Source: a virus (lineage: Duplodnaviria; Caudoviricetes). From it: DNA of 64,000 nt. Shown one piece after another: positions 142 to 45,514 of the stretch. Each line of letters opens with the position of its first letter. Position 1 is the stretch's first letter. The translations under genes were made by a program, and so were the position numbers. Location: IMG/VR virus record IMGVR_UViG_3300032138_000002, positions 1 through 64,000 of that record; one strand, given 5' to 3'. The notes under the pieces are model-generated. The model was given only the letters and a program-made list of their open reading frames with translations. It was not told the origin of the DNA and searched no databases.

Positions 142-321
142 TTAGACGTCTTTAAATATCCTTCCCTCTTCAATGAGAAAGAAAGCCATCCGTTGATAGT
201 GCCCTTGAAGTTCCCAGACGGTACCTGTAGTCAGTAATTCCTGAAAGAAATCAACGACTTCAGCATCGCTCATTGTTCCATCTTCGTAAGCTATGATTTT
301 TGTTGTTAGTCCTGATAGCAT
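142..321 (-). CDS. Hypothetical phage protein (~59 aa)
   Basis: ORF track 142..393. ATG at 321 directly follows the clpX stop and is the more likely start. Confidence 0.6.
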   Translation of the reverse strand: MLSGLTTKIIAYEDGTMSDAEVVDFFQELLTTGTVWELQGHYQRMAFFLIEEGRIFKDV

Positions 322-19723: not shown

Positions 19724-22700
19724 TTATCCTAATAATCTTAAGTTATATTTAATAGATCGTGTGGAGAAGCCCCACTGCTCTTCCCAATTAAGTCGCCCCA
19801 TATATGGTCGGTTGACATAAACCTTGTCAGTATCCTTGACACCCCAACACTTGATAGAAGTGGAAATGTTGTTAGAATCGATCACATTAAGAATCCAATA
19901 ATCCTTTCCATTCTTTGTCTTACGCTTAATGATTTCGCGGGGTATAAACCACACCACCTCTAGCGCGGGATCATACTCTGAAATAGGGGGGATATAGTTT
20001 TCTTCTAGCTTTTCTTTCGTTTCTTTTTTGAGCACCAACTCCATGGGGAAGATGCCCGTTAAATCGGCCAAGTGATGAATACGTTCTTCGATGCTGAAGT
20101 TTGCCTCCTCCCGGTACATTTCTATTCCTTCCGCCAATTTTTTATTATTCTTGGGGCGATCGACCACAACGGATGACCAGAAGTGTTTCGTGCCGGTAAA
20201 CCGTTCATCGATCAGAGAGGTGAGTGCACCGGCTCGACACATAACGTCTAGCGCCTTTTTGTTTAGTTTGCTATAAACAATCTCTTCGTTGAACAAGAGT
20301 TCTTCAATGTTGTCAAAAGGCCGGTGTTCCAGGATCTGGTCAATGGCTGCCGCGCCAAGGCCCTTGATAGATGTGAGGGGTTGAATGAGGGTTTTCCCGT
20401 CAAGAGAAATTTCCCAGACTGTACCCGAGGTGTTGATACTTAACTTTTCAATATTAAATCCAAAAGATTTGGCGATGTTGATAGCTCGCTCTTTGCGCTT
20501 CTCTGGCTCTTTATCCAGGAAAGCGGCCATCCACTCAGCGGGATAGTAATTAAGAAGATAGGCACACTGATAGCTAAGAATACTGTAGCTGACAGCATGG
20601 GACTTATTAAAGCCGTACCCGGAGAAGTATTCGAACTTTTGCCACAGTGCATTTGCGTTCGCTGCTGATAGTCCTTTATCAGCACAACCTTGGACAAACT
20701 TGTTATAGATCTTTTGTTTTTTCTTTTCATGATCTCCGGTACCTTTCTTGGTAAGTAATTTGCGTAAAGCATTTCCTTCATCGAGAGAAATGTTTTTTCC
20801 CAATTTGTGGGCCAGAAGAGCAATTTGTTCCTGGAAAATTAGATAGCCATACGTCTCTCCCGTGACCTCTTTAATAATAGGGTGGTCGTAGTCAATATTA
20901 CCGGGGCTGTTCTTCGCCTCGACATATGTTTGATCCACCTTCGCGCTCAAGGGGCCCGGGCGATAGATAGAAGTGATAGCTGAGATATCGATGATGTTCT
21001 TCGGCTTTGCGCGGACACAAAATTCTTGGGCACCCTTTTCGCTAAACTGGAATATTCCAGCCCACTTTCCCTTGTGAAAAACATTTTTATATACGGCGTG
21101 GTCACCAAAATCTAAGACGTCTGGGTGGAGCTTCTCGTTATAATATTTCTGGACCTGTTCGAAAGTGGGGTCCTCAACGTTGTGATGTCGAACTAAAATG
21201 TGTCGGATCGCATCTTCGATCATCCGCAAAGAAGCAAGCCCCAAAATATCAAATTTAATGAAACCCAGTGGCTCCAAGTGCCGCACGTTCTGACCTTCAC
21301 TCCATGGTGTTTGGCGGACACCCCCACTGTTCACCAGGGGCATCCACTTGTCCAAATCCTCTCCAATTACCACCCCGCCCGCATGCCTAGAGACTGAGCG
21401 TACTTGACCAAGGAGGGCCTCGACGTGTGTTTTAATATGGGGGTATTTATCGAGGAAGCTCTTCAAGCTATCAGAATATTCCATGACTTCTTTAAAAGTG
21501 GGTACATAGACGCCCGCCTTGATACCGTGAATATTCTTCGCAATCGGCGTAGCCTCCTGAATCATTCTTCCTGTTACTATGTTTACTTCCGAAAACGGAA
21601 TGTCGTAAAACTTAGAAACGTCTTTAATAAGTGAACGCAGTTGCAGAGTATTATAATTGGAGATGGGGACCACCGTGGTGTCTCCCCATTCCTTAATCAG
21701 CATTTCTTTTAATTCCATAGGATTAGACACGTCATAGTCAATGTCGGGATAGTCTGTAGCATCGCTCCGCAAGAAACGGGAAAACAGGAGCCCATGTTTT
21801 ATGGGGTCCACCTGAGTGATATTAAGAACATAGGCCACTAGTGAGCCCGCAGCGGAGCCGCGACCAGGGCCTGTAATCTGGACCGAAGAGGCTTTGGCCG
21901 CTACTGCGCGCATGGTCAAAAAGTACTTGGCGAAGCCTCGCTCCTTGATAACCCCCAATTCTGTTTTGAGGCGCGCCACGTATACGGGATCTTTGTGTAG
22001 CTCTCTTTCCTTGAGGCCGGCCCCACAACTTTCTGTTAGAGCTTGAATATCAGTCTTGCCCGCGGGCACCACAAACTGCGGGAGGCGCACCTGATCATCG
22101 GGCATAAAGTCCTCGATGCGGTCGTGGGCGATATGGTGTGTACGCATAATAGAATCTTTGATATACCGATCGTCATAATCCATCTTAACCTCGGTAGAGT
22201 ATTTAAGATAAGATTCATACATCTCGTTTCCGTTCTTGGGATAAAGCTCGTAGCCAATTTCATCGACGTCATTGGGAATTTCGGCAGACATATAAGACGG
22301 GAGCCCCCCCTTCCCCAACCAACCGATGCGTTTATACAGTTCCCGATCTTTCCAGGCTTCGGGGGTAGGATAATGACTATCGGCTGTAGATATAGTTTCC
22401 ACGGCCATTTCGTCACAAACCTGAATTATATATTGATTAAGGAGGTGCTGGTCTTCATTATTATTCCATTGTAGTTCCCCGTACCATCGGTCCCCGAAGA
22501 TCTCTTTCATTCGTCTCGTGGTGTCTCGCATCGATTCCAAGACGGCAGCCGGTCCGTCGTCTTTATTATCCCAGTAATTTCCAGCATATATCCCACCGAG
22601 ACAAGCACTAGAAGCAATAACCCCACTACTATACTCAGCAAGCAAATTATAATCCATTCTAGGATATCGATAAAAATTTCCATCTTTATAACTCTCTGAA

Positions 22701-23134
22701 ACTAGTTTAAATATGTTATTAAGACCTGTTTGGTTCTGTGCCAATAAAATAAGATGATTTCTTTTCTTTAAGATATCTTTCACTTTTTGCTTCGAAGCGG
22801 CTTCGTCTTCGATGCTGAGCCCCATATCTTTGTCTAGTCTTTTTTTCTTTTGTTCCCTCGCCTTAGTGTATTCCTCGCGCCACTGGCCCAGGGAGGGGAG
22901 GAAATAAGCCTCCACTCCAAAGATAGGCTTAAAGTTCTGCCCATCCGCTTTTAATTGTTTAGCAAACAAAACCTGATACGGAAGACCGTTCATGTGTCCG
23001 TGGTCGGTCAGGGCGAGGCCGTCGGAACCATTCTCTAGGGCGAACTTCATATGATCTTGCGGATAGCCCAGTCCGTCGTTTAAGCTCATTCCACTATGTG
23101 CATGCAATCCTACGAAAGGTATTTTCTTAGACAC
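19724..23134 (-). CDS. dnaE: DNA polymerase III alpha subunit (family C)
   Basis: PHP domain (HAHS, TDHG, GVE, DSH), GRGSAAGSLVAY, PDIDYD, RHAGGVVI, KFDILGL, YGFNKSHA, HhH IKGLG, C-terminal OB fold. Confidence 0.97.
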   Translation of the reverse strand: MSKKIPFVGLHAHSGMSLNDGLGYPQDHMKFALENGSDGLALTDHGHMNGLPYQVLFAKQLKADGQNFKPIFGVEAYFLPSLGQWREEYTKAREQKKKRLDKDMGLSIEDEAASKQKVKDILKKRNHLILLAQNQTGLNNIFKLVSESYKDGNFYRYPRMDYNLLAEYSSGVIASSACLGGIYAGNYWDNKDDGPAAVLESMRDTTRRMKEIFGDRWYGELQWNNNEDQHLLNQYIIQVCDEMAVETISTADSHYPTPEAWKDRELYKRIGWLGKGGLPSYMSAEIPNDVDEIGYELYPKNGNEMYESYLKYSTEVKMDYDDRYIKDSIMRTHHIAHDRIEDFMPDDQVRLPQFVVPAGKTDIQALTESCGAGLKERELHKDPVYVARLKTELGVIKERGFAKYFLTMRAVAAKASSVQITGPGRGSAAGSLVAYVLNITQVDPIKHGLLFSRFLRSDATDYPDIDYDVSNPMELKEMLIKEWGDTTVVPISNYNTLQLRSLIKDVSKFYDIPFSEVNIVTGRMIQEATPIAKNIHGIKAGVYVPTFKEVMEYSDSLKSFLDKYPHIKTHVEALLGQVRSVSRHAGGVVIGEDLDKWMPLVNSGGVRQTPWSEGQNVRHLEPLGFIKFDILGLASLRMIEDAIRHILVRHHNVEDPTFEQVQKYYNEKLHPDVLDFGDHAVYKNVFHKGKWAGIFQFSEKGAQEFCVRAKPKNIIDISAITSIYRPGPLSAKVDQTYVEAKNSPGNIDYDHPIIKEVTGETYGYLIFQEQIALLAHKLGKNISLDEGNALRKLLTKKGTGDHEKKKQKIYNKFVQGCADKGLSAANANALWQKFEYFSGYGFNKSHAVSYSILSYQCAYLLNYYPAEWMAAFLDKEPEKRKERAINIAKSFGFNIEKLSINTSGTVWEISLDGKTLIQPLTSIKGLGAAAIDQILEHRPFDNIEELLFNEEIVYSKLNKKALDVMCRAGALTSLIDERFTGTKHFWSSVVVDRPKNNKKLAEGIEMYREEANFSIEERIHHLADLTGIFPMELVLKKETKEKLEENYIPPISEYDPALEVVWFIPREIIKRKTKNGKDYWILNVIDSNNISTSIKCWGVKDTDKVYVNRPYMGRLNWEEQWGFSTRSIKYNLRLLG

Positions 23135-33341: not shown

Positions 33342-34316
33342 TTAACAATTTTGATATACAAGGTGCTGACTGATCTGCCACAAAGACGACCAGTCAAAGA
33401 CTCCGAAGCCGTCGTCGTTCATCATTTTGATCACCTCCGTCTTACTATAGGAACAATCAAAATTGAAAAGGGCTTCGCGAATATTACTCTTGGCGCTGAT
33501 TGGTAAGTTGGGTGCATATAATTGCATAATTTTATAGTTGTCTCTTACAACATCGATGTTCTCTAAAATGCTCGTGTACAATTTTAGGCGTGAATCCGAG
33601 TTGTCGTTGCAAACTTCTATAAGATCATCGATTGTAATAGACGCACTCTCACCAAAAAAATTCATTTTTTTAGCTAAAGTCTTGAGGCCGACACCGGGCA
33701 CGCCAGGAAGATTATCACTCTTATCTCCAGCTATGGCCCGGGCCAATGCAAAATTGGTAGGGTGGATCCTGTGGCGTTCGATTATAACGTTCTTGTTAAG
33801 AACCTCTTTTTGTACGGGGCGAAAAAGAACCGTGGTATTGTCACACAACTGATAAAAGTCTTTGTCACTGGATACAATGATCTTCTGATACTCTCGCAAG
33901 TTAGGTTCTTGTACAATGTGGGCGATTACGTCGTCGGCTTCAATGCCGGGAATCATAATCTGGATGATGGGGAGGTTGTTAATATATTCCACGGCGCGGG
34001 TTTGTTGCCAGATTTTATTCTCCAGTTCTTGGTTCTCGTCTAAAAGGCCCTGAATGCCCCTATTTAAGCGAATAGGGCTCCGACCCTCCTTGTAGTCCTT
34101 ATTGACGATTCTTTTGCGCTTAGAGCCTCCTGGGCCGTCCCACACCACCACCACTTGATCGGGCTTAGTCTCGCGCATTAACTTCTGGAGGATTTTAAGA
34201 AATCCTTTAGTGCCGCCAATTGGCTGGCCGTTCGAAGATAATGAGGGGTCTACAATATATGCCCTGAAGTACATGTTCAGGGCATCAATTACTAGGTATC
34301 TCTTTTGTTTCTTCAA
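33342..34316 (-). CDS. 5'-3' exonuclease/flap endonuclease (Pol I N-terminal domain / T4 RNase H family)
   Basis: LVIDALN, VVWDG, YKEGR, EADDVIA, SSDKDFYQL, GDKSDNLPGVPGVGLKT. Confidence 0.93.
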   Translation of the reverse strand: MKKQKRYLVIDALNMYFRAYIVDPSLSSNGQPIGGTKGFLKILQKLMRETKPDQVVVVWDGPGGSKRKRIVNKDYKEGRSPIRLNRGIQGLLDENQELENKIWQQTRAVEYINNLPIIQIMIPGIEADDVIAHIVQEPNLREYQKIIVSSDKDFYQLCDNTTVLFRPVQKEVLNKNVIIERHRIHPTNFALARAIAGDKSDNLPGVPGVGLKTLAKKMNFFGESASITIDDLIEVCNDNSDSRLKLYTSILENIDVVRDNYKIMQLYAPNLPISAKSNIREALFNFDCSYSKTEVIKMMNDDGFGVFDWSSLWQISQHLVYQNC

Positions 34317-34542
34317 TGAATTGCTTTATTTTGGGTAATATGGCCTTTATAAAGGCCTTGTAGGTTAGAGGGGTGTCGTTCTCATCGTAAGTCTTTAATT
34401 CAATATTCCAGGAATAGTAAAACTGTTTTCCATCAATCAATAAAGACTGTTGTCGCCCATGGGCATCGATGTGAGTATAACATAGTTGAAAGGCCACGCC
34501 GGGGAAACGGGAAAGAAGTTTCTTTTGGAAAGCTTCTTCCAT
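34285..34542 (-). CDS. Hypothetical protein
   Basis: ORF track; TAATG coupling to upstream gene. Confidence 0.6.
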   Translation of the reverse strand: MEEAFQKKLLSRFPGVAFQLCYTHIDAHGRQQSLLIDGKQFYYSWNIELKTYDENDTPLTYKAFIKAILPKIKQFIEETKEIPSN

Positions 34543-34991
34543 TATTGTTTTTCTCTGGTACCAGCCACATAATCAGTTAGAGGAAATAAAACGCACCAGT
34601 TAGCATCCTGATTGCGACCCATATGATGATCCCAATGCCATCGCATATGCTTCTTACCCCAAGCGGGGTTCAGGTGTGAATACTTGTGCAGATAATAATA
34701 CATCATACCATAAATAGCCATCGATGTCAAGATAATTGGTTGAGACCACAGAATAGGCACGTGAATCAGGAATAGCGTGGCGATGCCCACCGCCTCAAAA
34801 TTGTAGAAGCCCTGCAAATATGTTAAATCAAATCCGTTAGTTTTGCGCGCATTCGCGTGGTGGTCGTGCCAGTGAAAACTCCAGATACTATTTTTATTTT
34901 TTCCTAGGCCATGGAGCAAATATTTATGAATGAGCCATTCGTACATGTTAGTAAGAAGAATTCCCACCACTATTTTTAGAAGCACCATCAT
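34542..34991 (-). CDS. Fatty acid hydroxylase/sterol desaturase superfamily membrane protein
   Basis: His boxes HKYLLH, HWHDHH, HKYSH, HWDHH with hydrophobic segments. Confidence 0.85.
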   Translation of the reverse strand: MMVLLKIVVGILLTNMYEWLIHKYLLHGLGKNKNSIWSFHWHDHHANARKTNGFDLTYLQGFYNFEAVGIATLFLIHVPILWSQPIILTSMAIYGMMYYYLHKYSHLNPAWGKKHMRWHWDHHMGRNQDANWCVLFPLTDYVAGTREKQ

Positions 34992-35500
34992 TTTAAGAAT
35001 ATAGACCAGTCAGGGTGCCGGGTATTGGAAGGAAAAAGGCCATAATATATATCATATCGTGGTGCTCTCGGCACTGTTATTAAAGACATCGATGTGTCGG
35101 AAAGTAGATGATTATTTTTTTTATTATTGCAAGTGTAGCATGCACAGACACAATTTTCAAACGTGCTTTCCCCCCCGCGAGAAACTGGTATAATATGGTC
35201 GATGGTAAGTTGGGTGCGATCTGAACGCTTGCCACAATACTGACATCTAAAATTATCTCTTTTTTTAATAATCTTCTTAGAAAATTTTACTTTGCCGCGA
35301 TAATACTTAACATGCGTTTTTAACCGCAGCGTGGAAGGTAGCGCAATTGCCCGGGTACAAGACCTAATGTTAATCCCCTCCCACTGAGAGACTACATCTA
35401 CTTTTTCTCGGTGCATTAGCTTAAGGCCTCTCTGCCATGTTACAAATCGTAAAGGGCGATAATCAGAATTGAGAAGAAGTATTTTTTGATCGACCGCCAT
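34988..35500 (-). CDS. HNH endonuclease (McrA-like)
   Basis: LLLNSDYRPL, RDNFRCQYCG, LTIDHIIPVSRGG, ENCVCACYTCNNKK. Confidence 0.92.
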   Translation of the reverse strand: MAVDQKILLLNSDYRPLRFVTWQRGLKLMHREKVDVVSQWEGINIRSCTRAIALPSTLRLKTHVKYYRGKVKFSKKIIKKRDNFRCQYCGKRSDRTQLTIDHIIPVSRGGESTFENCVCACYTCNNKKNNHLLSDTSMSLITVPRAPRYDIYYGLFPSNTRHPDWSIFLK

Positions 35501-35525
35501 CTACTATAACTATGCACTCGCTGCA

Positions 35526-35894
35526 TTATCGGTGGCGGCGGTGGCGTCTAGGGCGGCGCTGGTGGCGCCGTTGTTGGCGGTTGGGGCGCTGGTGGGGTCG
35601 GTAATGTGGGCGCTGGTAGTTATATCGATAACTGTGGCCACGGTAAGAGCGCCTATAGGTGCTGTAAGGGGTGTAGTCATAGTGGCACGACTGATCGTGA
35701 TACTCTACTGTAGAAGAATCGTACGTGTGGCGGCGTGCGCGGTCACATCGTTCTACGCGGTATTCCCACGCATCATAGCGATAATCGTACTCCCACACCT
35801 TGCAATAATCGACACAAATTAGTTGAGCATTAGCTTGTGACGTTGCAAAAGTAAAGAGGAGAAAGGCTGTGAGGAAGTGAAAGACACACCTCAT
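35526..35894 (-). CDS. Secreted protein with Tyr/Arg/His-rich low-complexity tail
   Basis: Signal peptide ending ANA; C-terminal HYRPHQRPNRQQRRHQRRPRRHRRHR. Confidence 0.6.
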   Translation of the reverse strand: MRCVFHFLTAFLLFTFATSQANAQLICVDYCKVWEYDYRYDAWEYRVERCDRARRHTYDSSTVEYHDQSCHYDYTPYSTYRRSYRGHSYRYNYQRPHYRPHQRPNRQQRRHQRRPRRHRRHR

Positions 35895-37009
35895 TTGCTT
35901 TCCTCAGACTCAATGTCATAAAAGTCGGCGGCGGTACCTTCGCGCTTATCAAACTTCAGAATAACCTCTTCGTCCATGATGTTTAACACACGTTTCCGGA
36001 AGGCTTCTTCTTGGATTTTTTCTTTCCACCTCGAAGGCTGGAATTTTATCTCCGTTCCGTCTCCCATCGCCATTGTATACCAAGATCCCGCACTTTTTAG
36101 ATGTTTGGACCCACGAATGGCCTCAAACCAGCTTTCTTCGTCCTGGATGCCAATATCGTCACCCCATAGAATTTTAAAAGTACATTGGCGGCCCTGAGTT
36201 CCAAAACGGCTCTTCTTAAGAGTGGCCTTAACTTCTGAACCTACCCTAAACCCGCGGTCGTCCGTGATAAACGATGCTTTCGCTTTTCTACCTGTTAGCC
36301 AGATCCGAAGGGAATAAGCATAAATCATTGCTTTGCCTCCGGGTGTCATATATGGTTCGACCATCGCTTCCGATGGGCTTCGGGTAATATTTGTCTTTAA
36401 TTGATTTAAGACCAGGAATGTGGATTTGCTATTTGCGATCGGAACAGTAAGTTTACTCATACCTTTCGCCAGAATACGGGCTTTCACGGCCATCGAAGAG
36501 AGGGGATTAAAGTCTCCTTCAACATCGCTAATGGCGGGTGTGAGAGCCAGACTGTCCCAAATAAAAAGCATCTGAGTGTCATTGCTGCCCAGTAAATCCT
36601 CAATGGTCTCCAGAACGAACTCAACGCTCTGCGCTTGCACATATAACATTCGGGCGACGTCGCAGCCTGCACGTTCTAAGAAAGTGGGGTCGATCGCCGA
36701 TTCCGAATCAAAATAAATTACATCAATGCCCATTTTTTGAGCATTAGCGGCAACTTGAGCGGCCATATAACTTTTTCCGGAAGCTTCGAGGCCGGCGATT
36801 TCCACCACTTTACCTACCGGAATGCCCGAGAGCCTGCCACGAGAAACAATTGAATCTAGCCATCTTGACCCCGTGGGAATCCACTCTGTTACGGCCGTCG
36901 GGTTTTCTTCAGTTAAATCATGGGCAAGTAAGACACCTGCTTTTTTATTAATCATTGTGCGCATATCATCGATTGATAGACGCCCTGCTTTATCTTTCTT
37001 CTTTGCCAT
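35891..37009 (-). CDS. recA: RecA/UvsX recombinase
   Basis: IPTGSRWLD, GLEASGKS, DSE, WDSL, NQLK, TPGGKAM, KKSRF. Confidence 0.93.
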   Translation of the reverse strand: MAKKKDKAGRLSIDDMRTMINKKAGVLLAHDLTEENPTAVTEWIPTGSRWLDSIVSRGRLSGIPVGKVVEIAGLEASGKSYMAAQVAANAQKMGIDVIYFDSESAIDPTFLERAGCDVARMLYVQAQSVEFVLETIEDLLGSNDTQMLFIWDSLALTPAISDVEGDFNPLSSMAVKARILAKGMSKLTVPIANSKSTFLVLNQLKTNITRSPSEAMVEPYMTPGGKAMIYAYSLRIWLTGRKAKASFITDDRGFRVGSEVKATLKKSRFGTQGRQCTFKILWGDDIGIQDEESWFEAIRGSKHLKSAGSWYTMAMGDGTEIKFQPSRWKEKIQEEAFRKRVLNIMDEEVILKFDKREGTAADFYDIESEESK

Positions 37010-37035
37010 AATTTTTCCTCAGATGTGTATAAGTT

Positions 37036-37069
37036 GAGGCATCTGTAAACCCATGCCTCCCTGCGGTTT
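37036..37069 (-). promoter_or_regulatory. Predicted hairpin/H-type pseudoknot in recA leader
   Basis: mRNA AAACC-GCAGG-GAGGCAU-G-GGUUU-ACAG-AUGCCUC. Confidence 0.55.
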
Positions 37070-37080
37070 GAGGGCGGGAA

Positions 37081-37845
37081 TTAACTTCCCGCAAGATCCT
37101 GGAAGGCAGCCTCGACATCGGAAACTTCAGTCCCCGCGTTGGTGGTCGTCCCGTACTTCTGGGTTTCGTTCGAGCGGCTTTCGGCACTTTGATTACCGGA
37201 AAGGAACTCGTCCAAAATTACTTCCACCTCGGCGGGTGTCTTACGCTCGAACAAGGAATTAAACTCTGGAATGTTTTCCAAAAGTTCCTTGCATCGATCT
37301 GGACCATCATCGCACAAGACAGAGGTTTGGCGACGCGGAGTGATGGTAGTCTGAGGGAACTGTGCCCCTGCTGGCTTACCATACTTAATCACTAGATCAG
37401 TACCCGTCTCGGTATCGGTGATATCACCATATTCCGGGTTGAGTACCAGATTCAGCAACTCCTCATAGGCCATTCTACCGTATCCCCAGATACGGATGCC
37501 TAGATGCTCCTCTCCACGCACTAGAACCGGGGAAAAGAAGCGCTGGCGAGGTAACAGGCTTTTAGCGAGCTTAACGCTATCATCTGTACCTTCGTCAAAT
37601 AGCTCTCGAACAAAAGCGCTCAGAGCATCTTCTTCACCAAAGTTCTTCTTTGGGCTAAGAAAGGGAGGCGTATTGCCTACGTTATAGTGAAACCAGAAGT
37701 CGCGGAATGGGTCGCCGTCGGCATTAGTCACAATGCGTACGACGCTTTCGCCATCCTTCGGTTTCCAGAAGACCTGGGAGTTATTTCCTCCCCTGCTCTG
37801 AAGGGTTGTCAAGCGATGCTTGATCTTTTCCATATTAATAGCCAT
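37081..37845 (-). CDS. Single-stranded DNA-binding protein (T4 gp32-like)
   Basis: FWKP..VRIV..PF..FHY, RFFSPVLVRG, IWGYG, YGDITD..GTDL, acidic tail ending AFQDL; upstream of recA. Confidence 0.8.
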   Translation of the reverse strand: MAINMEKIKHRLTTLQSRGGNNSQVFWKPKDGESVVRIVTNADGDPFRDFWFHYNVGNTPPFLSPKKNFGEEDALSAFVRELFDEGTDDSVKLAKSLLPRQRFFSPVLVRGEEHLGIRIWGYGRMAYEELLNLVLNPEYGDITDTETGTDLVIKYGKPAGAQFPQTTITPRRQTSVLCDDGPDRCKELLENIPEFNSLFERKTPAEVEVILDEFLSGNQSAESRSNETQKYGTTTNAGTEVSDVEAAFQDLAGS

Positions 37846-37874
37846 ATAATTCTCCTTACAAGTTAAGCTATAGT

Positions 37875-37906
37875 CAGAGTGACAAATCTTTCACTCTGCT
37901 GATTTA
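37875..37906 (-). promoter_or_regulatory. Leader hairpin (8 bp) with possible pseudoknot upstream of ssb
   Basis: CAGAGUGA/UCACUCUG stem; loop GAUUUG is complementary to upstream UAAAUC. Confidence 0.55.
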
Positions 37907-37917
37907 AAGTTACTCCT

Positions 37918-37946
37918 ACTATACCAAATTAAATCAGTTTTGTCAA
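37918..37946 (-). promoter_or_regulatory. Sigma70-type promoter for ssb-recA
   Basis: TTGACA (37946-37941), 17 bp spacer, TGn-TATAGT (37923-37918). Confidence 0.88.
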
Positions 37947-37954
37947 GTAAAAAA

Positions 37955-38818
37955 TTAATCTGATACCAGATTATTTATTTTTTGTCGCTGAATTGTAGGG
38001 GTACTATAAACGACATAGATATAGTCGTCTTCGTAATTCGTGGAAAATACACCATAACTTGTCTTTAGTTCCTCTGTGCCTGTGTCTTTTACTTGAGACT
38101 TCAAGCGCGCAAATAATTTGCCGTCGCTCTCGAGTCTTTTTTTATTAATAGCATAATAATAACGTAAATCGCGGGGTTTGTAGAGAGAAAAGAAGGTTTT
38201 GGTTTCTTTTGCCTTTTCATCAAAGAAACCAAAAGTGGAGATACGGTGTGTTTCGTAGGGATCTCCAAAGGTGTCGGTAACGGGGTCGATGTGGTTGTAA
38301 ACATTTAACATGTGAAAAGTAGAGACAATCATTTCATTAAGCCGCTGAAAATACCCGATGACGGGTACCTCACCTATAATGTCTTCCACGGACGTGTTAT
38401 CCACAAGCCATAAACGTTCGAGCGTAGCCGAACGAGCGTACTCCTGCAAAATATTAAAAACCAGCCACTCTTGCATTCGACGGCGCTCGGGAAGTAATTT
38501 TACATCTGGACGGATGTACATAACACTCACGCGGCAGTGCCTTAAATGTTGTAACGTTTGAAGAAGACATCCTGAGATATCTCCGGATCCGCCGACCACA
38601 AACAGTACTTCTCCGGTACAGTTCTTGAAGAAGCTCTTCAAGCTTGGACACTTCTTTTCATAGCGCTCGGGATTGCACTGCCATGGCATGTCGTATATGC
38701 CGTTCTTTTTCAAGCCAGTTAAGCCAACATCAATTTTATAAATGTTGTATTGTTTGTATTTTGCAAAACCATCCGCAATATTACAACCCGCTGCTCCTAG
38801 CCCGACAACAATATCCAT
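37955..38818 (-). CDS. Tubulin/FtsZ-superfamily protein (PhuZ/TubZ-like, divergent)
   Basis: VVGLGAAGCNIA (T1 loop), YKID, FVVGGSGDISG (degenerate GGGTGSG), IRP, LVDN, RLNE. Confidence 0.75.
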   Translation of the reverse strand: MDIVVGLGAAGCNIADGFAKYKQYNIYKIDVGLTGLKKNGIYDMPWQCNPERYEKKCPSLKSFFKNCTGEVLFVVGGSGDISGCLLQTLQHLRHCRVSVMYIRPDVKLLPERRRMQEWLVFNILQEYARSATLERLWLVDNTSVEDIIGEVPVIGYFQRLNEMIVSTFHMLNVYNHIDPVTDTFGDPYETHRISTFGFFDEKAKETKTFFSLYKPRDLRYYYAINKKRLESDGKLFARLKSQVKDTGTEELKTSYGVFSTNYEDDYIYVVYSTPTIQRQKINNLVSD

Positions 38819-38819
38819 C

Positions 38820-39158
38820 TTATTTCCTCGGGCGTGTGTTTACACATTCCAAAATTATGCGATTGTTGAAGGCACCGCGGGCTTCTCTTTTAGCCAGCAT
38901 CACCTTTTCTAATTCGTCTATATCGATTTTCATGGCGTCAAGCAGTGCACCGAAGACCTCCGCAATATCGGCCATCTCTTCAATAGAGGGATCTTCTAAG
39001 AATTCTTGGGCTTCCTCTACCAACTTCTCTTGGAGCTTTTGCTGGTATTGTTTCTTGGTTGCCACACGGGTGTAAAACTCTTTGCCCGCTTCCGACATAA
39101 TCTGTGGGATTTTATCGCGGACCAACTTATCATATACTATAATACTTCTTGACTTCAT
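38820..39158 (-). CDS. MazG-like/HisE-like nucleoside triphosphate pyrophosphohydrolase
   Basis: YDKLVRDKIP, KLVEEAQE, EEMADIAEV, KREARGAF. Confidence 0.88.
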   Translation of the reverse strand: MKSRSIIVYDKLVRDKIPQIMSEAGKEFYTRVATKKQYQQKLQEKLVEEAQEFLEDPSIEEMADIAEVFGALLDAMKIDIDELEKVMLAKREARGAFNNRIILECVNTRPRK

Positions 39159-40339
39159 AGGCTTAACTCTTGCATCTCTCCATAATTTTTACCGGCTGAC
39201 AAGTTTACTTTAAACTTGCCTAAATCGGTATCTCCGAAGGTTTCTTTAATGAGGGGTACTAAATGTTTGTCGTCACTATGCAAATCAATAACCAAACTGT
39301 CGTGCACGCAAAAAGCAATATGTGATTGTTTTGTCTTCAGCAGTTCGTTGACTGCCACCATTCGACGCAAAAACAAATCACTAGTTGTGCTTTGAATTAT
39401 ATAGTTAACGGCGTGGTGATCGTCGGATTCAATTTCTCTTCCAAATTCCGTGCGCACCATCTCGCCGTCCCAATATTGTTTTTTAATTTTATCTCGATCA
39501 TAAAATTTTGTCGCCGGGCTTTCTGCCGCAGGATTGTATAACCAAGCAAAAATATTCTTTTTGGCCTCATCGCGGCTCATATCCGTTTTAAAGACATGTT
39601 TGATGTTCCACTCATGAATGTCCTCTTTCGGCTGTTCATTGCCAGCTAGGGCTAAAAGCGTGCGAATTTCGGCCGAATTAAAGTCTAACTCTAAAAACCA
39701 CTCATTGGTCGGCCTTACGATACCTCGATATTCTTTAGGCATCGTCAATGCCGGAAAACTCCCTCTCTTGGTAGTGAGGCGCCCAGTCTTGGTTCCAAAC
39801 AGATTATAACTAATGTAGGGGTCAGCTTTTTTGATTTTCTCGTGCCAGTTACGTGTCTTATATTGGTGCAGCTTGCTCCGGAGTGCTGAAAATTCCAAAT
39901 TTAAAGGGCGTACCTGAATTTCTGACAAGATCTTCTGCACTTCTAAAAGAAGATCATAATTTGGAGGCTTTTCGTAGTTCTCAAATACGTGCTCGGTTAT
40001 CTTATTTTTGATCTCGCAGAAATCACGCAAGAAGCTCTCGGGGACCAAATCATAAAAGCAGTTCTCGTTTAAATCAACGCGAGCTTCATGAATCGCTCTG
40101 TAAAACGCCAGCATTCTCCCATAAACATCGTCCCAGGTATCCTTGATGCTATCGGGGCATACATCTCCTAGGCTTTTACCACCACAATAGAGCGCCGCAT
40201 ATTCTATGGATCGATCCTCCAAGAAATTCGCATAATTCCACGTCCTCATGAGGTTCTCTGGGAACATATGATAATATAATTGTCCGCTGGCATATATGCC
40301 GACGCACTCGTTCTTTATGTCAAGTGTCTGGAAATACAA
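39155..40339 (-). CDS. Minimal family A DNA polymerase (polymerase domain only)
   Basis: TKTGRL, motif A LDFNSAEIRTL, motif B RDEAKKNIFAWLYN, NYIIQSTTSD, motif C VHDSL; 394 aa with no recognisable exonuclease motifs. Confidence 0.85.
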   Translation of the reverse strand: MYFQTLDIKNECVGIYASGQLYYHMFPENLMRTWNYANFLEDRSIEYAALYCGGKSLGDVCPDSIKDTWDDVYGRMLAFYRAIHEARVDLNENCFYDLVPESFLRDFCEIKNKITEHVFENYEKPPNYDLLLEVQKILSEIQVRPLNLEFSALRSKLHQYKTRNWHEKIKKADPYISYNLFGTKTGRLTTKRGSFPALTMPKEYRGIVRPTNEWFLELDFNSAEIRTLLALAGNEQPKEDIHEWNIKHVFKTDMSRDEAKKNIFAWLYNPAAESPATKFYDRDKIKKQYWDGEMVRTEFGREIESDDHHAVNYIIQSTTSDLFLRRMVAVNELLKTKQSHIAFCVHDSLVIDLHSDDKHLVPLIKETFGDTDLGKFKVNLSAGKNYGEMQELSL

Positions 40340-40347
40340 ATAGGGTT

Positions 40348-41763
40348 CTAGTAGGTTGTGGGTTGACCCGGTATACTAGTTATAACAGAATTAAAGGCCT
40401 TTGTCAAGGCTTCTTTTGGATTTTCCGTATCACATTTAATAAAGCTTTGGCATGTCGTAGGGTTAACTAAGTTTCCAACGTAATGCTTGATCTTTTCTTT
40501 TACGTATACTTGGGCCTTTGTAAACCCATAAAAGTTATTAAACATCACAATGTTTTTGACCATTGCGTCATAGTCGCTTTGTGAAATTCGCAAATTATGT
40601 TCGAGAATTTTAGAATCCATGATAAATTTTAACATATACATATCACTGTATTGAAGATTAAAATTCTCATGAGTAGCCAACTCTCTTTTTAATAATGCAA
40701 AAGTGCCGGCACAACTTTTCGGTGTTGACAACCCCGTCCTCTTGGTATAATAGGAAAAATGGGGATCAAAGTCCTTACTAGTTGCAACCAAATTAGTTAA
40801 CTTAACATCTTTATTTCTATAATCTGATAATTTTACTTTGACATAATTCTCAAACTTCGCGAGGCGATTAAACCCTTCTACAATGTGATGGCGAACCAGG
40901 GCTATGTCGCTCAAATACGCGGGGATAAAGTATTCACTAAATAAATTAGTAGAGGTGCCCGGGTCGTAGCGCAAATCATAATCCTTAGAATCTATAAAGT
41001 CGCCGGTGGCCGTATTAACAAATCTCGTTAATGGCACCATCCATTGTTGCATGGGAATGGAAGAAACATTGGCGACCAGGCGCCATGGAGCGTATCTATC
41101 TATATAAAAGCCGTGTTTGACCGCTGCGTTTTTATAAAAGAGAAAAGCCGGATCTCGTAGAAATAATTGTTTTTGTTGATAGGTGCCATCAAAGTTCGCC
41201 TTAGCGGTATCCAAGATAAGTCCGCTAGCTTTTGGAGAACACCAACCGGATTTTATAAACGAACTCAGAGAGAGGGGTGTCATCGCAGCAAAAATACGAA
41301 TGTAGCCAATTAATTGGTTAACGTAGTCTTCGACACTTATCACCTTTTGGGATAAACGAGAACCCAATAAATATTTGTTAAATACATCAAAATATTTGGT
41401 GGCGTAGAAGTCATAGAGGTCGTTGGGGTCTGACCATCCTTGAACAGCATGGAGATCTGCGAAACGCGAAAGATTATCAACTCTGCGTGCTGCAGTTGCC
41501 TTAAGAATATGAGTTTGGAGTGCGTTGAATGAGTCAATGACAAAGTTGAGTGCTTGGGTAGATTGGTCGTTGTACAACGTTTCTTTTATACGAATCTCGG
41601 CCTGGTGAGCGGGGATGTATACCGCATCCTGTATTTTATTAACTTTGCCATATAAAGTCTTTTCATTCCGCATGTCAATAAACTCTGGGGAAGGAGGTAC
41701 CACTAATCTATCGTAGAATTTAGCATCCCGATATCTAGTGTAGGAATCGCGTGTTGGGGCCAT
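40348..41763 (-). CDS. Hypothetical protein at end of tail/baseplate module
   Basis: 471 aa ORF coupled (TGATG) to the upstream large gene. Confidence 0.75.
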   Translation of the reverse strand: MAPTRDSYTRYRDAKFYDRLVVPPSPEFIDMRNEKTLYGKVNKIQDAVYIPAHQAEIRIKETLYNDQSTQALNFVIDSFNALQTHILKATAARRVDNLSRFADLHAVQGWSDPNDLYDFYATKYFDVFNKYLLGSRLSQKVISVEDYVNQLIGYIRIFAAMTPLSLSSFIKSGWCSPKASGLILDTAKANFDGTYQQKQLFLRDPAFLFYKNAAVKHGFYIDRYAPWRLVANVSSIPMQQWMVPLTRFVNTATGDFIDSKDYDLRYDPGTSTNLFSEYFIPAYLSDIALVRHHIVEGFNRLAKFENYVKVKLSDYRNKDVKLTNLVATSKDFDPHFSYYTKRTGLSTPKSCAGTFALLKRELATHENFNLQYSDMYMLKFIMDSKILEHNLRISQSDYDAMVKNIVMFNNFYGFTKAQVYVKEKIKHYVGNLVNPTTCQSFIKCDTENPKEALTKAFNSVITSIPGQPTTY

Positions 41764-44700
41764 CAGAATGGGCCTCCTTCATCCGTACTCTCATCGGGCT
41801 TTTCATAATCAAATCCGATTGTCCGGTCAGTAAACACCGATAACTCTCGCCCCTCCACTTGCCGAAACAGATCATTTTCAGCGCTAGATTGTTGCGGGCC
41901 TGCTCCGGTTTGTGCGCCCTCTTCAGCGCGTTCAAGCGTTCCGATGACTTCAATACGATCTTGAATACTTTTTTCAAGTTCCTTTTGAGAGGCCGGGCCA
42001 AAGGCAGACCCAAAAGAATTCCAAAAGGATTCAATGGTGCTGGTCCACTCGGGTTTGTTGGCAGCATTTACTTTCAGTTGGTGTCGTGTTTTGGTAACAA
42101 AATAATATCCCCCTAGTCCCATGAGGCGCGCTCGTGAAATTGCACCTTGCTGTTCCGCAGCTAAAGACCCTAACGCGTCGACATCGTGGCCCGTGTTGGC
42201 GATCCTTCGGCGGAAATTCTGAATGTCCTTATTAACGTCTCCCATGCCCCATGGCATGCGCAAATAAAAATATCTACCTGCTTTAAAAGCAATATTGCCT
42301 ATTGTTGTAAAATTGCAATTATAGACCTCGCTTAACTGGGTTGAGTTTCCGAGAAGGCCTTTTTCGGCCCGGGCTTCCATCAAGAATGGCTGATCTGCGC
42401 GATTAAGTTGTATATTCTTAATAGGCACCCCCTCGCGCCCTAATTCTACATAAATAACCCCCTTGCTTGTGTCTAATGTTTTATCGTTTTTTAAAAAAGA
42501 CGGGTCGGAAGTTTCCACTGCGATGACACACAAATTTTGGTCGATGCCCAAAGGAGCGGCATCTAAAAAGCTTGTGAGATCCTCATCATTAGTTGTTCCC
42601 GTCGTCCGATTATTGCTTAGGGACGCGTCGCGACCTAAAGATTGACGGACCTCGGGGCCCAGGAAGAAGCCGTCGCTGTCATCGTGCGTGGAATGGGCGA
42701 GTCGGGAAGTTGCCTTTACTCCGATCGGCTGATTTTTTGTAATATCCTGATATTGTACAAACGGTCTATATGCTTTGGAAATTTTCTCTCCGGTTGGACC
42801 TGTTGCTCGGCCCGAATAATTATTGAGAGGCTTGATTACCAAATCTATTAAAGCATCTTTTAAAAAAGCCTTGAAAGAATAAGTTTCTTTCATGGGATCC
42901 AATACCTTTCTCACCCAAAAGTCTGCAAAGCTGCTGTACGCAATGGGAAAAGAAGCTAAATTAATCACATGGGTCGTTTCATCACTCAAGTAGGCTGTCC
43001 ACTCAAAATTGCTGAGAATATGGGTTGCAGTTTTGAACGTCTGGGCCTCTTCCAGGCTTACCAAACCCTGATAGCCCTCGATGGCGTTTGCGCGTCTTTC
43101 GTCACCAACCAAGATCCTCCCGTCGACGTCTGTAAATATATTTAAGGCATCTTCAATAAGATCTCCGAAATGGACCCATCGGAGTGTCGCCCCCACAAAA
43201 AGTTCCTGCTCCTTGTCGTCGAACATCGCTTCGAAGCCGGTCTTCCCAGTCGCTTTTTGATATTCTTTCCAGTAAGCCTGATCGATCTTAGGATTCAGCT
43301 TAAGGGGCCCTGTTAGCGTCTCCTTGCGATCAATTGTCTTTGGTGTCTCCCCCTTACGCTCACTTTTTAGTCGCTCGGTCTGTGCCCTTTCGACGTTGTT
43401 CATGGCTTCGCCTATCTCCTCTTGGTCGTCGCCAGTAGTAGAAACCCCTTCGACCCCGGAATCGGTCATTTGGGCGGCAATTGCCTCTCTTATGTCCGAA
43501 GCGGCGGAGCGAGCTTGCGAAACTCTTTTAGTCCGGGCGGACTGAGCCGTTTGATAGTCCCTTTGTGTTTGGGCATCCGGGGGCGCGCCGCCATCAGATG
43601 AGCGTTCATGGTTTTTGACCGCTGTGCGCTCATCTTTCGTGTAAGACGTACCTACTTGAGTTGAAAACACGTAGTTCTCTAGGAGAGACTTGGGGAGAAA
43701 GATGCTATTTATCCGAGGTGTATTATTGTTGTAGTGGCCGGTCCCCAAGGCGCGAATAAGATGACCCTGTGTGTGGGCTAGAACTCTTTCTTTTGTCATC
43801 TTAGTTTCTTTACGATACAGTTCCATGAAATTCTTGGCTAGCCAATACCGGTATACTCGCACAGCCTGTACGCTAAGTCGACCTTGGATCCGCTCTCGGC
43901 GGTCATGCTCTGTGAAGTGTACGATGACCGTTCCTTCTTCTAATACGTCCTGGTTTGCAATCGAGATAGAGGGCGCGTGACGTCCAAAGTTTTCACCCGG
44001 ATTGACGCCAAAGAGATCGTGATAATCATATGCGGAGAATCGGGCTCCTTTGGTTATGCCATTGGTGCTGAACAACGAATCAAATTCTTTGGGGTGGCTA
44101 TCGACAATACCCACAGTCTTAGCAGAAAGCTTTGCCTTTTCTTCCATGGCACTCCCCAAATTAATTCCCGACCTTTCTATGAGTGTGGTGCGGACGGAAG
44201 TAGCGAATTGCTCCTCTATGTGCCCAACTCGAATCAGATTTGTGCGAACGGGATCTGCGGCTATGGCCTCTTGGGATCCATTAAACTCAAACTCTATCTC
44301 AAAAGGGCCGCCGGGGATTTCAGGTTTAAAGAATATTTGATGTTGTTTCAGCGTTAAGAACATGGACAGGCGCTGGGCTTTTATCGCATTAAAAATATAT
44401 TCCGGGTTACTCCCTGGAATGGCTTTTGTGGCTTGCCTAAGAAATTCTTTGTCCGGAAGGTCGTACCCTACCTCAACTAAAATACGGAAATAAGCATCAT
44501 TGAAGACCCTATCTTCTATGGCATCCTCTCCGGCTAGCTTCACCATCTTTTTTGGTCGCAAAATAAGGTCCGAAAATGCCACCTTTTGTTCCCCATCAGT
44601 GTACTCATGGAAAAAGGCATCCGTGCTTGAAAAATAAAGACGCAACTTACAATTAATAAAGTAGTCCACTTCAGCCGGGTTAGTTCCTAAAAAATCAAAC

Positions 44701-45184: not shown

Positions 45185-45514
45185 CTAGGTCAATGCCAGC
45201 ACGTCATCGAGGGGAAGAGGTATATATATAACATCTCCCAGACTCACCTCTGCCTCCATAGGGCGCTTATTAAACCAGGCAATAACCCACCAGTATTGAG
45301 TAGTACCATAATATTGTTCAGATAATTTATAAAAACGATCGCCCATTTTCCATGTATGATTAATAATATTTAATTTTTGTATCTGAGCGGGGCTAGGATA
45401 ATTAATCATTGGTGTTGTAAAGTGGCGGATAAACTTTTTTCCTCGATCACGGATAAAAGAGCGATAAATTTTTTGGGCATTGTTAATAACCCCATATGAA
45501 TAATTTCTTGACAT
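45185..45514 (-). CDS. LysM-like baseplate wedge protein (T4 gp53/tail X-like)
   Basis: HTWKMGDRFYKLSEQYYG..WWVIAWFN..GDVIYIP. Confidence 0.8.
   Translation of the reverse strand: MSRNYSYGVINNAQKIYRSFIRDRGKKFIRHFTTPMINYPSPAQIQKLNIINHTWKMGDRFYKLSEQYYGTTQYWWVIAWFNKRPMEAEVSLGDVIYIPLPLDDVLALT

Follow-up and report, generated by a model that had tools for sequence, protein, structure and literature searches.

In a 64,000-nucleotide window of a tailed-phage genome (positions 1 to 64,000 of IMG/VR record IMGVR_UViG_3300032138_000002; the window is the whole stretch that was analysed), we identified a gene for a 287-residue protein, termed TUB (P0001), which is predicted to adopt a complete two-domain tubulin/FtsZ fold. 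TUB belongs to a large family that is found almost only in viruses and that keeps an invariant place between the genes for a DNA polymerase (PolA) and a single-stranded DNA-binding protein (SSB). Two kinds of phage tubulin are known: PhuZ, in jumbo phages that form a nucleus, and TubZ, in temperate or plasmid-like elements. An initial annotation, made from the DNA sequence alone, had described TUB as a divergent member of a distinct phage tubulin lineage. Here we examine the predicted structure, the family and its conservation, and weigh the functions that TUB may have.

Predicted fold of TUB

The AlphaFold2 model of TUB, built on a 43-sequence alignment, reached a mean predicted local distance difference test score (pLDDT) of 91.9 and a predicted template modelling score (pTM) of 0.90, and shows the two-domain fold with helix H7 and the C-terminal domain. 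Compared with the PDB by Foldseek, it returned FtsZ and TubZ (E 3e-13 to 1e-11, TM score about 0.7, 12-15% identity); among viral models, phage FtsZ, tubulin and PhuZ entries were returned. An unbiased fold search of 48,161 PDB chains with VIA-align, which is independent of Foldseek, placed 17 tubulin-superfamily chains at the top (Z 11.5-23.8), 16 of them full-length matches that align 242-278 residues. CetZ scored 23.8 and 23.1, TubZ 22.9 and 21.5, tubulins and FtsZ about 20, the TubZ of Clostridium phage c-st 19.4, and PhuZ 15.8-16.8. The tubulin-type matches span residues 1-284, whereas the best unrelated fold, a short-chain dehydrogenase/reductase (SDR) Rossmann fold, scored no more than 8.6. 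The tubulin/FtsZ fold that the initial annotation had read from the sequence was thus checked by structure prediction, with Z values of 20-24 against at most 8.6 for the next fold, and is confirmed as a complete two-domain fold as far as prediction allows.

By sequence, TUB has no match in Pfam, PHROG or NCBIfam (PF00091 none even at E <= 10, and TIGR00065 none), and the family profile retrieved nothing significant from the PDB sequences. PF00091, for which the gathering threshold is 33 bits, gave sub-threshold matches in 12 of 135 family members, the best with E 5.6e-4. In local mode, hhalign connects the family with FtsZ-like proteins across 160-170 columns: the family profile aligns with a 32-sequence FtsZ profile at E 3e-4, and with a canonical FtsZ-like open reading frame (ORF) of a related phage at a probability of 81% and E 1.2e-5 over 169 columns. 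A phmmer match of residues 197-268 to TRAP/MtrB in the PDB (E 2e-4 for an engineered tandem, 1.3 for the single domain) was gone when the family profile was used, and was put down to chance.

Comparison with known tubulin systems

The best structural matches are CetZ proteins (3zid and 4b45), archaeal cell-shape proteins with a compact two-domain core, which superpose over 261-267 residues with a root mean square deviation of 3.2-3.3 Å. They share 12% identity with TUB and, in contrast to it, are archaeal, chromosomally encoded and equipped with canonical GTP loops. Since CetZ is tied with TubZ to within about one Z unit, no specific kinship is implied. TubZ (Bacillus pBtoxis, pXO1-like and Clostridium phage c-st; 4ei7, 2xka and 4xcq; 14-18% identity) resembles TUB in being encoded by mobile elements or phages, and it acts on DNA. 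However, the GGGTG signature, the T7 acids, the long C-terminal tail that binds TubR, an adjacent tubR gene and the iterated tubC repeats are all missing from the TUB locus, where the neighbours are PolA, a MazG-like protein and SSB (the small neighbours were not compared with TubR by structure).

FtsZ is among the top Foldseek matches (E 3e-13), and its T1 loop, T2 Asp, T6 Asn and H7 Phe/Asn map onto TUB by profile alignment; TUB nevertheless lacks the T3 GAG, an intact T4, the T7 NxDxxD, H8 and H9, and the linker with the C-terminal peptide, and does not reach PF00091. PhuZ (phiKZ gp39, 201phi2-1 gp59 and Goslar) is, as TUB, a phage-encoded protein of tubulin fold, but it lies farther away: in addition to its lower Z values, it is matched in BFVD at only E ~2e-5, and hhalign with the phiKZ protein covers the T1 region only. 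The acidic C-terminal tail that PhuZ needs for filament assembly is missing from TUB, and the 159-kb TUB phage, with its gp23-type capsid, tail sheath and DnaE, is unlike the phiKZ-like phages. The initial annotation had recognised no shell protein, and our search of the 159-kb genome with chimallin (phiKZ gp54) agrees, with no match at E <= 10 in a single-sequence search of low sensitivity on a record that is about 90% complete. Taken together, the model comparisons support a TUB that is about equally distant from CetZ, TubZ, FtsZ and the tubulins, and farther from PhuZ.

The best sequence-level link of TUB, the FtsZ-like ORF mentioned above, comes from the same phage clade. It is a 364-residue FtsZ/tubulin-like ORF (L124:1027-2121, minus strand) present besides TUB in IMG/VR UViG_3300025131_009739 (165,872 bp; the same genome as locus L011), and it combines an acidic N-terminal extension with GVGGGGG and GGGGGTGS motifs of the canonical type. 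It matches TIGR00065 with E 9.5e-8 and PF00091 with E 3e-6 (below the cut-off), adjoins a 237-residue ORF without Pfam match, and lies far from the replication block. Such a second, canonical tubulin was found in one of six large genomes checked, and is lacking in four other large relatives and in the present genome, where a PF00091 search gave no second tubulin and TUB occurs once. The presence of both genes in one relative suggests that TUB does not simply duplicate a standard phage tubulin.

Family size, distribution and synteny

A word-indexed search returned 746 TUB homologues, and an exhaustive profile search 836 clusters at 50% identity, 603 of which have E <= 1e-10. Members are typically about 275-300 residues long, with a span of 173-314 among the 150 best-scoring. 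The family is nearly virus-only: it occurs on at least 592 IMG/VR contigs and in 2 out of 185,579 prokaryote species genomes, in both cases on contigs of metagenome-assembled genomes (MAGs) with phage gene order. Both contigs probably come from phages and were binned with the MAGs, and they give at most a weak hint of the host. One is assigned to Legionellales (PBLX01000020.1, 48.7 kb; L084) and the other to Flavobacteriales (JABHTA010000215.1; L085). PolA is directly upstream of TUB in both, and the former has the order 1133-residue ORF, 397-residue ORF, PolA, TUB, SSB, RecA, FEN, DnaB.

Searches by tblastn with TUB and with the 394-residue PolA (PolA394) against 50,697 phage records gave no match, and neither did the family profile against Flavobacterium phage immuto, the nearest cultured phage by capsid; these empty results prove little. 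No locus emerged when viral contigs were scanned with P0257, the most divergent member, and P0265 served as query instead. In the ESM-Atlas, one cluster of relatives has automatically been named "Tubulin/FtsZ GTPase domain-containing protein", and our literature search found no paper describing the family.

The order orf1137-orf471-PolA-(MazG)-TUB-SSB-RecA-FEN-DnaB-RNR was found in 80 of 80 IMG/VR loci (TUB identity 43-68%). The PolA-(MazG)-TUB-SSB-RecA-FEN-DnaB order extends to 8 loci of the most divergent branches (TUB identity 27-32%), giving 88 loci in total, and in these 8 loci the PolA stop is directly adjacent to, or overlapped by, the TUB start. In all related loci with the respective flank, PolA is directly upstream and SSB directly downstream; MazG is optional, being detected by blastp in 18 of the 80. 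This invariant place between PolA and SSB ties TUB to DNA replication. Across the divergent loci, identity is about 65% for RecA, 60% for DnaB, 50% for SSB and 42% for PolA, compared with 27-32% for TUB. As TUB diverges most and yet the order of the locus is kept, it is a fast-evolving but never-lost core gene. The full fold, the about equal distance from known families, the failure of TUB to reach the Pfam threshold, the large and almost exclusively viral family and the fixed synteny all support the distinct phage tubulin lineage that had been proposed.

Conserved features of the nucleotide pocket and the opposite face

Conservation was measured over 135 family representatives and mapped on E. 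coli FtsZ by hhalign. The T1-like loop of TUB (GLGAAGCNIA, residues 6-15) retains its GxGxxG (G6 87%, G8 99%, G11 82%). Also kept are the Asp at the end of S2 in T2 (D30, 69%, equivalent to FtsZ D45), an NPE-like start of H3 (E51, 90%), the T5 Pro-Asp (P104 86%, D/E105 85%), the T6 Asn (N141, 76%, equivalent to FtsZ N165), and, in H7, an aromatic residue at 157 (65%) and N161 (81%), which correspond to FtsZ F182 and N186. Selection acts on those pocket residues that match FtsZ contacts. On the opposite T7/S7 face, N172 (74%), R/K192 (95%), T195 (85%) and G197 (89%) are conserved; the latter three and the Y220-Y222 strand rank next after the best-conserved element of the family, described below. 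With residues conserved both in the T1-H7 pocket and on the T7/S7 face, both longitudinal faces look constrained.

Possible functions of TUB

The reading that we favour, tentatively and without thinking it probable, is that TUB is a minimal tubulin/FtsZ-superfamily protein specific to phages and acts as a nucleotide-binding, self-associating scaffold on replicating phage DNA. TUB would bind nucleotide in tubulin fashion, self-associate head to tail, and form a static or slowly turning-over scaffold on the replicating DNA with mini-PolA (as we term the short PolA encoded here), SSB and RecA, rather than a dynamic T7-activated GTPase filament as in PhuZ, TubZ and FtsZ. We infer the nucleotide binding, the self-association and the replication link. 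The former two are favoured by the two-domain fold, the retained base- and ribose-contact residues and the conservation of both faces, and this architecture serves head-to-tail assembly in every characterised member (FtsZ, tubulin, TubZ, PhuZ and CetZ). A complex prediction with two TUB copies and GTP scored 0.00 and gave no answer, neither for nor against self-association.

Several features weigh against such a scaffold. The T3 GAG is replaced family-wide. T4 is eroded to G77 (94%) and S82 (72%) and departs from the [SAG]GGTG[ST]G signature: it reads GGSGDISG at residues 76-83 of TUB, where the initial annotation had correctly noted an altered signature besides a good T1 loop, and SGIDKESA, CGEDIMSS or DGSELVNS in divergent members. 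The same annotation saw no clear T7 catalytic loop, and this is true of the whole family, as no column of the T7 region (175-192) exceeds 53% Asp/Glu among the 135 representatives. The catalytic T7/H8 acids are D209 and D212 in FtsZ and E254 in alpha-tubulin; in a low-confidence hhalign extension, the two FtsZ positions are taken by a gap and N/H. H8 and H9 are absent from the model, with a beta hairpin in place of H9. That T3, T4, T7 and H8 have been lost speaks against GTP hydrolysis activated by polymerisation. The top-conserved element is instead a family-specific LQEYARS motif (Q125 99%, R129 98%, S130 96%) outside the GTP loops, which points to a function not common to known tubulins. 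TUB ends 14 residues past its last strand (S10, 266-273 of 287), and the other members stop at the same point; TUB therefore lacks the C-terminal tail by which PhuZ, TubZ and FtsZ make contacts within filaments or with partners. As in the initial annotation, no TubR is recognisable: no adaptor was found, and the region 35500-41800 has no tubC-like repeat arrays, only two-copy short matches, a TubR-like fold not having been compared. TUB also evolves much faster than its neighbours, and the canonical tubulin alongside it in one relative means that TUB may not be the cytoskeletal tubulin of the phage. The initial annotation had proposed that TUB organises replication factories or blocks host FtsZ. 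With erosion of T3, T4, T7 and H8, and with the most strongly conserved motif placed away from the GTP-binding loops, the alignment shows a pattern that suits neither a dynamic GTPase filament of the classic kind nor a protein that mimics FtsZ.

Such erosion beside a near-invariant LQEYARS would suit a non-polymerising accessory or regulatory subunit of the replisome, in which the tubulin fold serves as a (pseudo)nucleotide-binding scaffold for mini-PolA and/or SSB, contacting them through the LQEYARS surface and the H7/beta-sheet cleft, e.g. to assist the polymerase as an accessory factor or to act as a switch that senses nucleotides. We consider this a serious rival to the scaffold, possible but doubtful. 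The invariant position between PolA and SSB in 88 loci, the abutment or overlap with the upstream gene, the missing tail and adaptor, and the coexistence with a canonical tubulin all agree with it, and mini-PolA, a bare polymerase domain, might need a partner. However, that the genes are neighbours is by itself weak evidence for binding, a search for longer members found no fused PolA-TUB or TUB-SSB forms (weak evidence in itself), and the complete two-domain architecture is kept along with the base- and ribose-contact residues; moreover, we know of no tubulin-superfamily member that acts as a non-polymerising enzyme subunit. That a large marine phage clade has repurposed the tubulin fold in this manner, for a non-polymerising replication subunit with a LQEYARS surface and a degenerate nucleotide pocket, seems to us unlikely.

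Phages often block host division, and with FtsZ among the top structural matches, TUB could also be a catalytically dead FtsZ look-alike that caps or poisons host FtsZ filaments through a T7 face devoid of the catalytic Asp; the low-confidence hhalign extension indeed pairs HM[IL]NV[FY] of the family with L[IM]NVDF of FtsZ, both Asp positions missing. We judge this improbable, given the 12-15% identity, the equal or better match of CetZ and TubZ, and the location of the gene in the replication block instead of among early host-takeover genes. The T3 GAG, T4 and T7 NxDxxD interface loops are not kept either, although a protein that imitates host FtsZ, itself highly conserved, would be expected to retain them. 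A classical Rossmann-type dinucleotide (NAD/FAD)-binding enzyme, unrelated to tubulins, would account for weak TrkA_N matches in 20 of 135 members (best E 3.9e-6) and others to Pyr_redox_2, ApbA and similar families. These matches stem from the N-terminal beta-GxGxxG-alpha motif and the Asp at the end of strand 2; with 17 tubulin-superfamily chains ahead of any SDR Rossmann fold, H7 and the tubulin C-terminal domain present in the model, and hhalign links to FtsZ-like proteins over 160-170 columns, this explanation is very hard to maintain.

Genomic surroundings and transcription signals

The genes polA-mazG-TUB, followed by ssb and recA, are all on the minus strand, in the order originally described. 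Likewise, mini-PolA is as described, with readable motifs A (DFNSAEIR), B (KKNIFAWLYN) and C (VHDS) and no exonuclease domain. The MazG-like gene can be upheld in part: it contains KLVRDKIP and an EExxE...ExxD pattern, but its PRA-PH match (E 0.005, 17.6 bits) falls under the 21.3-bit cut-off.

Table 1 Features of the TUB locus (positions in the window).
Feature	Position	Strand	Basis
RecA/UvsX-like recombinase, 372 residues	35891-37009	-	PF00154 E 1.7e-33
SSB, 254 residues	37081-37845	-	PHROG 1192
Sigma-70-like promoter, strong, TTGACA-17-TATAGT with extended TG	37918-37946	-	consensus match only
TUB (P0001), 287-residue divergent tubulin/FtsZ-fold protein	37955-38818	-	ORF and AlphaFold2 model
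TUB internal map	residues: T1 GLGAAGC 6-12; T4-like GGSGDISG 76-83; LQEYARS 124-130; H7 156-175; C-terminal domain 193-273		
MazG/PRA-PH-like all-alpha nucleoside triphosphate (NTP) pyrophosphohydrolase candidate, 112 residues	38820-39158	-	sub-threshold Pfam match and motif pattern read from sequence
Mini-PolA, 394-residue family-A DNA polymerase, polymerase domain only	39155-40339	-	PF00476 E 8e-16
orf471, 471 residues	40348-41763	-	no Pfam or PHROG match
orf1137, 1137 residues	41763-45176	-	no Pfam or PHROG match
orf109, baseplate wedge protein	45185-45514		

Co-transcription of polA, mazG and TUB, as initially claimed, is plausible from the tight packing: polA shares 4 nt with mazG, the stop of which is one base ahead of the TUB ATG, and a GAGGA ribosome-binding site precedes this ATG. 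The sole strong promoter-like site, a consensus match only, falls after TUB, between its stop and the ssb start, which would make TUB the last gene ahead of a new start signal. Two RNA libraries, an oligo-dT one and an rRNA-depleted metatranscriptome, each from a separate study, contain contigs that match positions 38176-38470, in the middle of TUB, at >=99% identity. Because DNA carry-over is possible and other parts of the region are without RNA cover, these contigs are no evidence on transcription units.

The source record is a 159,483-bp IMG/VR virus, about 90% complete, which encodes a gp23-type capsid protein, tail sheath, DnaE, DnaB, RNR, GroEL and ClpX. It is an uncultured T4-like marine myovirus of the gp23 type, with its nearest cultured capsids (43-51% identity) in Flavobacterium phage immuto, Microcystis phage Mel-JY01 and Rhodothermus phage RM378. 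DNA nearly identical to 36900-40400 was found in marine and hydrothermal-vent metagenome runs of several studies (word shares 0.2-0.87), one of which has a very high contig depth and is possibly the source sample. The phage has two DNA polymerases, a DnaE-type Pol III alpha (PHP, NTPase, finger and HhH domains; 19724-23134, minus strand) and mini-PolA. A FEN-like 5' nuclease is encoded separately at 33342-34316, so that mini-PolA and this nuclease look like Pol I function spread over separate genes. Between RecA and the FEN-like 5'-3' exonuclease (34542-35500, minus strand) are genes for an HNH endonuclease (170 residues) and a fatty-acid-hydroxylase-family protein (149 residues), which are present in some relatives only (e.g. 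locus L002).

On the other side, orf471 and orf1137 are fast-evolving and always upstream of PolA, with the motifs YGRVD, NFVADAF and DPNFxFY..GFxIDKNxPWRLVAD. The orf471 model is confident (pLDDT 80.6) and has no significant PDB fold match, only weak VanY/VanXY-like rows; the idea that orf471 is the missing N-terminal part of a split PolA is accordingly without support. Both ORFs may belong, with the baseplate-wedge gene, to the tail module rather than to replication. The replication block probably begins at PolA, since orf471 has no significant fold match and orf109 encodes a baseplate wedge protein.

Significance

The TUB family would add a third phage tubulin lineage, one that is very abundant, occurs in T4-like marine myoviruses of ordinary size, and is stripped to a core of 275-300 residues, fixed in a replication operon, with the GTPase signature and the catalytic loop eroded. 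Pfam, PHROGs and NCBIfam miss the family, and a profile of it would therefore give an annotation to a conserved gene that counts as "hypothetical" across many marine viromes. If TUB forms filaments, it would show how little tubulin machinery a DNA-organising filament needs; if it does not polymerise, the fold would be seen doing something besides polymerising. Should TUB be a subunit of the replisome, it would be the first tubulin-superfamily protein to serve as a replisome component rather than as a filament.

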